This document shows positions 31,596-37,723 of a stretch of DNA of 64,000 nucleotides, in pieces. Origin of the DNA: Chthoniobacter flavus. Lineage in GTDB: Bacteria > Verrucomicrobiota > Verrucomicrobiia > Chthoniobacterales > JACTMZ01. The stretch spans positions 15,758 through 79,757 of the forward strand of contig CAMBUL010000002.1 in NCBI GenBank assembly GCA_945871065.1. The letters are read 5' to 3'. Both the position numbers and the translations under genes were made by a program. Every line of letters begins with the position of its first letter. The first letter of the stretch is position 1. The notes under the pieces were generated by a model that was given only the letters and a program-made list of their open reading frames with translations, was not told the DNA's origin and did not search any database.

Positions 31596-32392
31596 ACTCT
31601 TGCTTCTACGAGTGCGACGTCTTCCACCGGCGCCTGCGGCCCAAGCAGCATGAGTTTCTTTACCGCGTGTTTTATTTCTACCTCGATCTCGCCGAGTTGG
31701 ACATCGTGGCACGGAAGCTGAAAATTTTCGGGGTCAATCGTCCAAACATTTACAGCCTGCGCGACCGGGATCATCTGCAATACGGCCCCGGCGAGCGCCC
31801 GATCGCGGACAACGTGCGCGAGTTCCTCGAGCGCGCAGGGTGTCCGCTGGAAGAGAGCGGCGCGATCCGCATGTTCTGTTTCCCGCGGATGCTTGGTTAC
31901 ACCTTCAATCCCATCACCATTTATTTCTGCTTCCGGGCCGACGGCACCCCGCATGGGTCTGTCGTGCAGGTCGGCAACACCTTCCGCGAATTGAAGCCGT
32001 ATCTGGTGCCGCGCACGCCGGATGGCCAGTGCGACTTCGAGGTGCGGGTGCCGAAAGACTACTATGTGTCGCCGTTCAGTCCGGTCGATCTCGAGTTCCA
32101 CTTCCGCTTCCACCTGCCGGACGAAAAACTGCGGGTCTTCATTGATGACTACGATGCGGAGGGCAAAGTGCTGATCAGCACGCTGACCGGCCGGCGCAAG
32201 GAAATGACCTTGGCCAACCTCCTGGGCTTCACGGCCAGGTTTCCTTTCATCACCTTGAAGGTCATCTGGCTCATCCACTGGCAGGCGCTGCGCCTCTGGC
32301 TCAAGCGGGTGCCGTTTTTCCGGAAGGAAACCCGCGTCGAAGACCAGCGCGGGGTCTTCCGACCGCACAAGTCATTGCAAAAGAAGGTCTAA
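31592..32392 (+). CDS. DUF1365-family protein
   Basis: Begins NSCFYECDVFHRRLRPKQHEFLYRVFYFYLDL. GTG 31592 overlaps the upstream stop (GTGA). The longer ORF-track start lies inside the oxidoreductase gene. Confidence 0.82.
   Translation: MNSCFYECDVFHRRLRPKQHEFLYRVFYFYLDLAELDIVARKLKIFGVNRPNIYSLRDRDHLQYGPGERPIADNVREFLERAGCPLEESGAIRMFCFPRMLGYTFNPITIYFCFRADGTPHGSVVQVGNTFRELKPYLVPRTPDGQCDFEVRVPKDYYVSPFSPVDLEFHFRFHLPDEKLRVFIDDYDAEGKVLISTLTGRRKEMTLANLLGFTARFPFITLKVIWLIHWQALRLWLKRVPFFRKETRVEDQRGVFRPHKSLQKKV
31945..32383 (+). repeat. direct repeat copy 1 (3' part of the DUF1365 gene)
   Basis: Aligns without indels to 37282-37720 (offset 5337). About 33 mismatches by eye, concentrated in the 3' third. 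Confidence 0.9.
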
Positions 32393-33110: not shown

Positions 33111-33587
33111 TCGCGGAGGTCTGCGCGTTTGAGCGCCGTGCCGTAGCCTCACCGATCCAACGGGCTGCGCACGGCCAAGCCGGGGCGGTTGAGCACGTGG
33201 AGAGCACCTGAGCCTAGGGAGGGCTCGGGGCAGGTCCCGAGCCTGCGGGACCCCATTTAACTGTAGGGTCGGCAACCTGTCCGCCGTGTGCGGATCCCCG
33301 CCGACGAATCCATGGACTCGCGGCACACCGTGCCGCGGCGAGAGATAAAATTAAAACGCTTTAAATCATGGTCGTGCTGACGTCGGAGTGTCCGAGCGAT
33401 TTCTAGTCGGGCGGCCGGGGCATATTTGTCGAGATGCACATTTGCCTGGCGCGAGAGGGAGATTCATCTCCGCTTTTTCGGTTCGAAAAAAGCCCCCGTG
33501 GCCATTTCACCGCGCTTTTTGGCCGTTTCGTCGCATTTTTGATAATTTTTATTGCGGTGTGCCGGGGGCAACCTAATTTGCGCCCGC

Positions 33588-33977
33588 ATGAAATCACTAG
33601 CCCACTCTTCCATGGTGGCGGCGCTCTTCGCCGCGGTCACCCTCACCATCCAACCCTCCGCGCAGGCTGATACCTTCGGCACAAGCGGCAACGAGTTCAC
33701 GGTTGATTTCGTTAACATCGGCAACGCGGGCAATGCGGCTGATACCACCACCTATGGCGCGGTGCCCTACGAATACCGCGCGAGCATTTACGAGATCTCC
33801 CAGGACGCCATCACCAAGGCCACGGCGAGCGGGATGGCCAACGTGACGGCTGGGCCATGGGCGGGAAGCCAGCCTGCGGCGACTATCAACTGGTACGAGG
33901 CGGCGGCCTTCGTCAATTTCCTCAACACGAACTCGGGGAAGACGGCAGCTTACAATCTGACCTTCACCACCAACTAG
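33588..33977 (+). CDS. N-terminal fragment of the FGE/SUMF1-like (C-type-lectin fold) DGR target protein, ending at in-frame TAG
   Basis: Signal peptide MKSLAHSSMVAALFAAVTLTIQPSAQA. The TAG at 33975-33977 is in the same frame as the next ORF, two codons before its ATG. Confidence 0.7.
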   Translation: MKSLAHSSMVAALFAAVTLTIQPSAQADTFGTSGNEFTVDFVNIGNAGNAADTTTYGAVPYEYRASIYEISQDAITKATASGMANVTAGPWAGSQPAATINWYEAAAFVNFLNTNSGKTAAYNLTFTTN

Positions 33978-33980
33978 AGC

Positions 33981-34529
33981 ATGGCTCTGTGGAGCAGCGA
34001 GCAGGCTTGGACGGCGGGAGGAACCAATCTTTACCGGAACAAGAACGCCTTCTATTTCCTGCCCAGCGAGAACGAATGGTACAAGGCGGCGTATTACAAC
34101 CCTGCCGGGTCGGATTATTTCCTCTATCCGACGGCGAGCAGCAGCGTCCCGACGGCGGTGGCCAGCGGGACCGATGCGGGCAGTGCGGTTTACAATGGCG
34201 TTGCCTCGATTCCGGCCATAGTGGACAGCGCTGGAGGCTTAAGCCCGTATGGAACGATGGGCCAAGGCGGCAATGTGTTTGAGTGGACTGAGAGTGCCTT
34301 TGCTGGCTCAAACAGCTCTTCGTCCGAGTCTCGCGCGATCCGCGGTGGCTCCTGGAGCGACCCCGAGTTCGCCTTGAGCTCCTCGTTCCGGCTCGACGAC
34401 GTCCCGTCGTTCGAGGACGTCAACTTCGGTTTTCGTGTCGCGAGTATCCCTGAACCCTCGACAGCAGTGTTGGTGTTGATGGCAGGAGGCGCTTGGCTGC
34501 TCAGGAAACGCTTCCGCCGTTCCCTTTGA
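33981..34529 (+). CDS. C-terminal fragment of the FGE/SUMF1-like DGR target protein, carrying the VR and a PEP-CTERM anchor
   Basis: NVFEWTES...RAIRGGSW...GFRVAS is typical of FGE-sulfatase/CLec DGR variable proteins. C-terminus IPEPSTAVLVLMAGGAWLLRKRFRR is a PEP-CTERM sorting signal. Confidence 0.8.
   Translation: MALWSSEQAWTAGGTNLYRNKNAFYFLPSENEWYKAAYYNPAGSDYFLYPTASSSVPTAVASGTDAGSAVYNGVASIPAIVDSAGGLSPYGTMGQGGNVFEWTESAFAGSNSSSSESRAIRGGSWSDPEFALSSSFRLDDVPSFEDVNFGFRVASIPEPSTAVLVLMAGGAWLLRKRFRRSL
34317..34444 (+). repeat. DGR variable repeat (VR)
   Basis: 128 bp that aligns without gaps to 34807-34934. It differs almost only where the partner has A. Confidence 0.85.
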
Positions 34530-34561
34530 TCTTTGGCCCTTTGCCCTTTTCCTCTTTGATC

Positions 34562-34584
34562 CGGGGCGGCGTGCCGCCGCCCCG
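34562..34584 (+). other. GC-rich hairpin downstream of the VR/target gene
   Basis: cggggcggcg-tgc-cgccgccccg: 10-bp stem, 3-nt loop, 33 nt after the stop codon. Confidence 0.7.
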
Positions 34585-34594
34585 ACCACAGGAA

Positions 34595-34619
34595 GCCGCG
34601 AAGCGGTCTAATTTTTTTT
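34595..34619 (+). terminator. putative intrinsic terminator of the target gene
   Basis: Short stem gccgc-gaa-gcggt followed by a T8 run (34612-34619). Confidence 0.5.
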
Positions 34620-34630
34620 GAGCATTTGCC

Positions 34631-34942
34631 GTGTCCCGCGAGGAACTACCGAAAGCGCTGGCGACATGGTATGACTACACGAAGTGGGTGTTGGATCGTG
34701 TGGATGGATTTCCCAAGAATCAGCGTTTCGTCTTGGGCACGCGCAAAGTTGGCGCTTGCGCACGGCCGTGCTGTGGCGATAACCCATCTATCGGGCACCC
34801 GGTCCGAAAACGTCCGAGAATCGCGCGATCCGCGGTGGCAACTGGAACAACACCGAGAACAACTTGCGCTCCTCGAACCGGAACAACAACGACCCGACGA
34901 ACGAGAACAACCACATCGGTTTTCGTGTCGCGAGGCCCATGA
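34631..34942 (+). pseudogene. avd: truncated avd (DGR accessory variability determinant) stub; the frame runs on through the TR
   Basis: First ~45 codons (LPKALATWYDYTKWVLDRVDGFPKNQRFVLGTR) fit the Avd/four-helix-bundle N-terminal pattern. Similarity is then lost, and the stub is about 70 codons short of a full Avd before the TR begins. Confidence 0.6.
34807..34934 (+). repeat. DGR template repeat (TR)
   Basis: In the VR frame it reads KTSENRAIRGGNWNNTENNLRSSNRNNNDPTNENNHIGFRVAR, with 12 AAC codons. Non-coding location downstream of the avd stub. Confidence 0.85.
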
Positions 34943-35289
34943 GCGCGCCGCTGGTCCCAGCCAAGCGGCGTGATGCGGCAAAAGTTGCCGGCCAGAACTA
35001 CCGCCTTCCTCCGGAGGCCGCAGCCGTGCCGGGTTCAGGGACCACCGGGGAGTCCAGGGCGCGGGGAGGGCCGAGAGGCCGCGCCCCGCGGACGAAGCAG
35101 ACGCGCCCCGCTGCGGCCGGTAGGAAACGAAAACCGTGGCGGGGCATTTGCTCGTTTGGCAAGATATCGTGAAACTGCTCAATCATGCCATGGAGTGAAC
35201 GCGCCACCGCGCGTCACTCAGGGCGGACGTTCGGCGAATGGCCATTGAATTGAGGCCGATTCGATGGTCTGCAAATACCCACGAGCACG

Positions 35290-37267: not shown

Positions 37268-37723
37268 ATGGCTACCCGCGCCACCCCGCAGGCGTCGGTC
37301 GTGCAGGTGGGCAACACCTTCCGCGAATTGAAGCCGTATCTGGTGCCGCGCACGCCGGATGGCCAGTGCGACTTCGAGGTGCGGGTGCCGAAGGACTACT
37401 ATGTGTCGCCGTTCAGTCCGGTGGATCTCGACTTCCACTTCCGCTTCCACCTGCCAGACGAAAAACTGCGGGTCTTCATTGATGACTACGATGCGGAGGG
37501 CAATGTGCTGATCAGCACGTTGACCGGCCGGCGCAAGGAAATGACCTTCGCCAACCTCCTCGGTTTCACGGTCAGGTTTCCCTTCATCACGCTCAAGGTC
37601 ATCGGCCTCATCCACTGGCAGGCCTTCCGCCTCTGGCTCAAACGCGTGCCGTTTTTCCGAAAAGAGGCACGCGCCGAAGACCAGCGCGGTGTGTTCCGTC
37701 CGCACAAGTCTTTGCAGAAGTAG
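37268..37723 (+). pseudogene. 3' fragment of a second DUF1365 gene copy (direct repeat copy 2 at 37282-37720)
   Basis: Translation VVQVGNTFRELKPYLVPRTPDGQCDFEVRVPKDYYVSPFSPVDL... parallels residues of the intact gene at 31592-32392. It lacks the N-terminal ~115 codons. Confidence 0.8.

Follow-up and report, generated by a model that had tools for sequence, protein, structure and literature searches.

Probable remains of a cellular DGR from an uncultured lake Verrucomicrobium, with a predicted PEP-CTERM-tailed, TvpA-like target gene that carries a young in-frame TAG

The window, by which we mean the whole 64-kb stretch of DNA analysed here, comes from an uncultured lake Verrucomicrobium and contains, at about 32.4-37.3 kb, an islet rich in toxin-antitoxin genes. 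This islet is bracketed by a 446-bp direct repeat (91% identity; 31938-32383 and 37276-37720), in which the upstream gene's 3' end is duplicated, and both the islet and the repeats lie inside a row of lipid-modification genes. The locus discussed here lies within the islet and has a close relative on a syntenic 5.2-kb lake-metagenome contig (L001; 97% identical to the window overall, with Pfam matches to PIN, ParE, BrnT, VapB and again PIN), where the target gene is intact and has TGG in place of the in-frame stop. The features of the window locus are as follows:

33588..33668, plus strand: region coding for the signal peptide (M1-A27, ending in PSAQA and followed by DTFG), read from the translation
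33588..33977, plus strand: 5' fragment of the target gene, codons 1-129 plus TAG, within one FGE-sulfatase match that spans the stop
33975..33977, plus strand: in-frame TAG, nonsense allele of Trp130 (TGG>TAG, G>A at 33976)
33981..34529, plus strand: 3' fragment of the target gene, codons 132-313, with the remaining CLec/FGE body, the VR and the PEP-CTERM tail
34321..34444, plus strand: variable repeat (VR) inside the target gene, with 27 mismatches to the TR, 25 of them at TR adenines
34446..34529, plus strand: PEP-CTERM sorting signal and stop (IPEPS, hydrophobic helix, RKRFRR), one codon after the VR
34595..34619, plus strand: terminator-like hairpin and T-run after the target gene, from a consensus scan only
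34631..34744, plus strand: Avd stub, codons 1-38 of a bAvd gene for a 125-aa protein
34738..34744, plus strand: deletion junction with CACGCGC microhomology, where positions 567-1812 of the related locus L031 (1,246 bp) are missing
34738..34782, plus strand: RT remnant, the last 14 codons plus stop
34811..34934, plus strand: template repeat (TR), AAC-rich (36 A, 12 AAC) and still intact

Read in a single frame, 33588-34529 gives 313 residues with one internal stop, the TAG at codon 130, which is followed by AGC (Ser) and then by an ATG at 33981; the surrounding translation reads NLTFTTN-X-SMALWSSEQAWTAGGTNLYR, where X is the TAG codon and SMALWSSEQ follows it. An earlier reading made from the sequence alone (hereafter the sequence-only reading) had described two ORFs in the same frame, split by the TAG and one Ser codon and giving, when joined, a protein of about 313 residues. 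Every coordinate is borne out by the translation, which yields 313 codons, and the Pfam FGE-sulfatase match (PF03781, E 3.2e-15, residues 93-285) crosses the stop, so that both ORFs represent one gene. At the position of the TAG, all 16 aligned homologues have Trp, as do all 99 homologues that carry the motif xSM[AT]LWSS, and the residue is invariant across 120 homologues (column entropy 0). Full-length, uninterrupted homologues of about 313 aa with 75-86% identity are abundant, and all of them have Trp at this position; the features of the gene are no product of chance. Since this Trp is invariant in the homologues, the TAG corresponds to TGG with a single G>A transition at 33976.

No defect other than the stop is seen in the target gene, and the comparison of the window allele with the intact L001 allele gave a dN/dS ratio of 0.17 (codons 25-240). 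Both observations indicate that the target gene was functional until recently. The possibility that the TAG is a by-product of A-mutagenesis was considered and rejected, in agreement with the sequence-only reading, which had placed the amber codon outside the VR: the TAG lies 344 nt upstream of the VR, at a non-templated site, and is a G>A change on the coding strand.

The VR and the TR form a 124-nt direct repeat with an offset of 490 nt, no indels and mismatches at 27 of 124 positions; the two mismatches that do not fall on TR adenines are both TR-C versus VR-A. By its pattern of mismatches this is a textbook DGR pair, and the two differences at TR cytosines suggest ordinary drift since the last homing event. 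The TR, whose translation is N R A I R G G N W N N T E N N L R S S N R N N N D P T N E N N H I G F R V A, has the same position and composition as the TR downstream of the RT at a related locus, L034. As had been proposed, the VR lies in the C-terminal region of the target; it stands directly before the PEP-CTERM tail.

The fold of the target protein was assigned from a family profile built from 32 family members. The profile matches the variable protein 1 of Treponema denticola, TvpA (PDB 2Y3C), with E 2.2e-10, and the alignment of profile positions 27-284 with TvpA residues 22-292 covers essentially the whole mature protein; the next matches are EgtB, SUMF2 and PorK-type FGE-fold domains. 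An AlphaFold2 model based on the 32-sequence alignment has a mean pLDDT of 40, too low for use, and the fold assignment is based on the profile match to TvpA. There is no cysteine in the 313-residue protein, and hence the catalytic cysteine pair of the formylglycine-generating enzyme (SUMF1) is absent, which points to a non-enzymatic variable protein of the TvpA type. We thus classify the target, by homology, as a putative TvpA-like, non-enzymatic variable protein with an FGE-type C-type-lectin fold; the FGE-sulfatase/SUMF1-like body of the sequence-only reading is confirmed by the matches to PF03781 and TvpA, with the qualification that it is non-enzymatic.

The predicted protein starts with a signal peptide, MKSLAHSSMVAALFAAVTLTIQPSAQA, which was identified by inspection and is followed by D; the AQA-D junction is conserved across the aligned homologues, in line with the signal peptide noted earlier. 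At the other end, the final 27 residues, IPEPSTAVLVLMAGGAWLLRKRFRRSL, reach 22.1 bits with the NCBIfam model TIGR02595 (cut-off 16) and 18.3 bits with Pfam PF07589, slightly below its gathering score of 20.7. The sequence-only reading had set an HMM test for this tail, and the outcome supports a PEP-CTERM signal, the TIGR02595 cut-off being exceeded though that of PF07589 was just missed. Translation of the window in all six frames yields no other PEP-CTERM-like C-terminus, and no exosortase was found within the 64 kb. Verrucomicrobiota are rich in PEP-CTERM proteins, and the PEP-CTERM/exosortase system of protein sorting was reportedly described by Haft and colleagues in 2006. The likeness of the window protein to its substrates lies in the PEP motif, the hydrophobic helix and the Arg/Lys cluster, which together exceed the TIGR02595 cut-off, and in the N-terminal signal peptide. 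The intact protein would be exported via the signal peptide, and we infer that an exosortase would handle it via the PEP-CTERM tail, with subsequent display on, or release from, the envelope. Unlike the usual PEP-CTERM substrates, the passenger of this putative exosortase processing is a DGR-diversified lectin fold.

Among known variable proteins the closest counterpart is TvpA: both proteins are secreted (in the case of the window, by prediction) and non-enzymatic, and in both the VR occupies the C-terminus of the fold and finishes with GFR(V/L)A. TvpA is held by an N-terminal lipoprotein anchor, whereas in the window protein the signal peptide is a plain one and a PEP-CTERM tail follows at the C-terminus, one codon behind the VR. 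A further difference is that the window copy is broken by a stop and its DGR lacks the RT. Another exported and surface-displayed target of a cellular DGR with a C-terminal VR is LdtA of Legionella pneumophila; it is a Tat-exported lipoprotein with a DUF1566-type CLec domain, and the window protein differs from it both in the type of anchor and in the fold subclass.

The window protein has a great number of relatives. In a search of a protein collection, 8,000 candidates were scored and at least 7,421 matched at E <= 1e-5, so that more than 7,400 family members are known if they are counted as 90%-identity clusters. Homologue statistics were calculated for the best 120 of these at least 7,421 matches, which are uninterrupted, have about 313 aa and are 75-86% identical to the target; 118 of these 120 have a PEP-CTERM-like tail. 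Across the 120 homologues, the mean entropy is 2.59 bits at the 22 VR codons templated by a TR codon with A in its first or second position, 0.19 bits at the remaining 18 VR codons and 0.40 bits in the mature body outside the VR. The hypervariability of the family is thus confined to codons templated by TR adenines. Together these data indicate that the predicted PEP-CTERM-tailed DGR lectin is a very large natural family and is not peculiar to the window locus.

The related loci found in genomes come almost exclusively from freshwater Chthoniobacterales/Verrucomicrobiota MAGs, and there are several copies per genome, for instance eight loci in one MAG and four in another. One Chthoniobacterales MAG has two tandem paralogous FGE/PEP-CTERM genes (L002, 2069-4521) in an 11-kb locus that contains no Avd, RT or TR, making them orphan targets. 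A scan for TRs near 28 related genome loci (within 7 kb) and at L002 found none. The core of the gene (33900-34100) is covered in the lake metagenome runs X1-X9 at a summed contig depth of 200-1000, versus about 7-25 at the single-copy flanks, so that the family is extremely abundant across organisms in these metagenomes.

A literature search for DGRs or retroelements combined with PEP-CTERM or exosortase found nothing relevant. Two surveys of DGRs make no mention of PEP-CTERM or exosortase (Wu et al. 2018, PMC5758913; Roux et al. 2021, PMC8144416), while according to the second one most cellular DGR targets look membrane-anchored. The architecture of the family therefore appears undescribed in the searchable literature. 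The sequence-only reading had called exosortase-dependent surface display of a DGR-diversified protein an uncommonly described arrangement; as to the literature this stands, the search having found no paper, but the arrangement itself is not rare, being present in nearly all members of a family of more than 7,400 clusters.

Downstream of the target gene, little is left of the DGR machinery. The ORF of the Avd stub begins with VSREELPKALATWYDYTKWVLDRVDGFPKNQRFVLGTR and shares 84-100% identity with the N-termini of complete bAvd proteins (PF22296, 120-130 aa); the Avd model NF033474 matches the stub at model positions 6-36 of 104 only (E 0.006). The RT remnant, HAQSWRLRTAVLWR followed by a stop, matches the C-terminus (HAQSWRLRAAVLWR and stop) of the 346-aa RVT_1 protein of L031. 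At three intact relatives (L031, L032 and L033) the target is followed in turn by Avd (125 aa), RT (346 aa, RVT_1) and TR, and L034 has the order Avd (123 aa), RT and TR on a contig that starts at avd, leaving the target out of view. With these four loci the window shares a near-identical Avd N-terminus and RT C-terminus, and with L034 the AAC-rich TR. In a BLASTN comparison with L031, the window aligns in two segments, 34177-34744 and 34738-35233, which overlap by 7 nt, and the junction was inspected base by base. Compared to L031, avd has lost its codons 39-125 and the RT about 332 of its 346 codons, while the TR is spared. The two segments indicate one microhomology-mediated deletion that took most of avd and nearly the whole RT. 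No RT was found among the ORFs listed for 29-40 kb of the window.

The same state is found in L001, which is 100% identical to the window from about 34310, that is, over the VR, the Avd stub, the junction and the TR. Moreover, the VR is spanned by single unbranched exact contigs in four runs from four studies (X1, X2, X5 and X9), a kind of evidence in which rare variants could hide. The VR thus seems to be frozen, with no adenine-site diversity across samples. Where the sequence-only reading had seen a live DGR target, the adjacent Avd and RT are gone by one deletion and the VR is frozen. The DGR is, as far as the locus itself can tell, dead in cis, and the RT and Avd were lost before, or independently of, the nonsense mutation.

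The comparison with L001 also revealed a sharp mosaic (window 33459-34310 versus L001 1229-2060). The two sequences share 97% identity in the left flank; no alignment is possible over the promoter region (33459-33614); the 5' part of the gene, about 700 bp, has a dS of 0.44; and from about 34310, some 10 nt before the VR, through at least 35300 the identity is 100%. This pattern suggests that the promoter and the 5' part of the gene were replaced by recombination with another family member.

The TAG was looked for in public lake metagenomes with a 61-nt probe (33946-34006), each 31-mer of which includes position 33976. The probe is present in four runs of different sizes and years, X25 (study P5) and X26, X27 and X28 (study P2), and in the first three of these, exact contigs of 137, 111 and 64 nt, respectively, carry the TAG together with the neighbouring variants of the window itself. 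Depth in the TAG-bearing runs is just 3-5x and the VR is uncovered there, the phasing of TAG and VR being given by the window assembly only. Conversely, all contigs over 33976 read G in X1, X2, X5 and X9; the exact contigs of X1, X2, X3 and X6 either stop at 33975 or start at 33977, none of them crossing 33976; and A at this position is absent from the six best-matching runs checked, TGG being found in most sampled populations. Exact contigs tile the remaining window haplotype in X1 at a depth of 7-12x. As the window haplotype is seen both with TGG (X1) and with TAG, the stop is young and segregating. An assembly chimera was also considered and rejected, the window haplotype being tiled by overlapping exact contigs in several runs. 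The TAG is a real, young nonsense allele that segregates in a natural population.

The fourth run, X28, has the TAG inside a 302-nt contig with 23 differences from the window, all of them outside 33897-34063. Here the same stop is found on a second haplotype or paralogue background, which could be explained by short-tract gene conversion between copies or by recurrent mutation.

Taken together, the locus is in all probability the wreck of a cellular DGR of the order target-avd-RT-TR, the target of which has acquired a young loss-of-function TAG allele. The VR would encode the ligand-binding face of the lectin, directly before the tail, and the intact protein would be exported and sorted by an exosortase. 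The first step of decay was the 1,246-bp deletion between short CACGCGC repeats, by which avd was mostly and the RT nearly all lost, leaving the TR in place and the VR frozen. In the second step, a G>A change in part of the natural population turned the invariant Trp130 into TAG. The products would be a secreted 129-residue N-terminal piece or a C-terminal piece that starts at M132 and has no signal peptide, and we infer that neither of them can serve as a functional displayed lectin. The TAG allele would then abolish the function of a surface protein whose diversification has already ceased, and may be neutral or favoured, a possible advantage being that a phage or grazer which recognises the frozen protein would no longer find it. 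A point against this explanation is the second background in X28, which a one-off neutral mutation does not predict.

The locus could instead be alive if an RT and an Avd encoded elsewhere used the TR in trans, the TAG copy being a temporarily silent cassette that could be repaired from paralogues as the multi-copy family exchanges segments through gene conversion; we regard this as unlikely. The TR is fully intact and AAC-rich, and the 28 related loci with no TR within 7 kb are yet all hypervariable at TR-adenine codons, which suggests that remote or past DGR action is common in the family; gene conversion, for its part, is consistent with the sharp break about 10 nt upstream of the VR relative to L001 (dS 0.44 on one side, 0 on the other) and with the TAG on a second background in X28. 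However, the VR shows a single form in four metagenomes and the same one in L001, two VR/TR mismatches lie off adenine, and the TR is located downstream of the RT on the same transcript, from which the deletion took everything between the start of avd and the end of the RT. As to repair, a DGR is unable to mend a stop outside the VR.

A wider version of this idea, of which we are doubtful, is that the PEP-CTERM lectin family represents cassette-based antigenic variation layered on the DGR. The DGR would write the VRs, and dozens of RT-less orphan copies per genome, including those with stops, would archive them, a division of labour to which we give little credence. Similarly, we think it improbable that segmental gene conversion, breaking at the edge of the VR, moves bodies, VRs and even the tract with the TAG from one copy to another. 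If this were true, surface variation would continue and silent copies could be revived after the loss of the RT.

Still less probable is that the UAG is read through, by leaky near-cognate decoding or by a suppressor tRNA, giving the full-length protein with the TAG as an attenuator. The otherwise perfect reading frame and the occurrence of the TAG on two sequence backgrounds could be taken in its favour, but an intact downstream frame is expected anyway for a very young nonsense allele. Moreover, TAG is a normal stop in the window, where it ends 9 of 58 putative genes, no tRNA gene was found in the 64 kb, and the codon replaces an invariant Trp from which it is one transition away and which is still encoded by TGG in most sampled populations. 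Hence the TAG is best taken as an ordinary stop codon here, and nothing in these gene counts or in the window suggests reassignment or programmed read-through. It is scarcely credible that the TAG is an error of sequencing, or of assembling a MAG across a multi-copy gene family: the conserved core of the family is indeed very deep in lake metagenomes and the six best-matching runs checked have no A at 33976, but the 61-nt stretch occurs in four runs of differing size and year and exact contigs of 64-137 nt join the TAG to window-specific variants in X25, X26 and X27.

The sequence-only reading had left three explanations of the TAG side by side. Inactivation, which fits the invariant Trp, is strongly favoured; sequencing error is excluded by the TAG-bearing exact sequence in four runs from two studies, and read-through is without support. 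The TAG is an ordinary young nonsense allele in an already dead DGR, for which no new biology is needed.

Under this preferred explanation, a dead DGR with a nonsense allele in its target, the locus is best seen as a decaying member of the very large family of PEP-CTERM-tailed DGR lectins, and it is this family of TvpA-like DGR variable proteins, with a PEP-CTERM signal one codon after the VR, that is worth recording. Should experiments bear it out, the family would connect two systems so far studied apart, DGR hypervariation and exosortase sorting, and would offer a natural decay series for studying the loss of DGRs: intact cassettes; loci with the RT lost and the TR kept; loci with both RT and TR lost; an adenine-depleted TR slot; and a target with a nonsense allele.

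Two further observations concern relatives of the window locus. Another Chthoniobacterales MAG shows, at L035 (7562) and L036 (about 670), a separate deletion of 1,136 bp relative to L031 (1009-2144), reaching from about RT codon 64 through the TR, and its Avd, read by eye, appears frameshifted. A left breakpoint shared with the window (34744) was considered for L035 and L036 and rejected, as that position is merely the end of similarity and the deletion differs when compared to L031. As this deletion is independent, RT loss is recurrent in the clade.

The second observation concerns the TR slot of L031 (1886-2009), L032 (3339-3462) and L033 (1820-1943), which is adenine-poor and VR-like despite the intact Avd and RT, with 17 A and 1 AAC versus 36 A and 12 AAC in the window and in L034. 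Mismatches between this slot and the local VR are not adenine-specific, and it looks as if the TR of these three loci had been overwritten, by self-homing or by VR-to-TR conversion.
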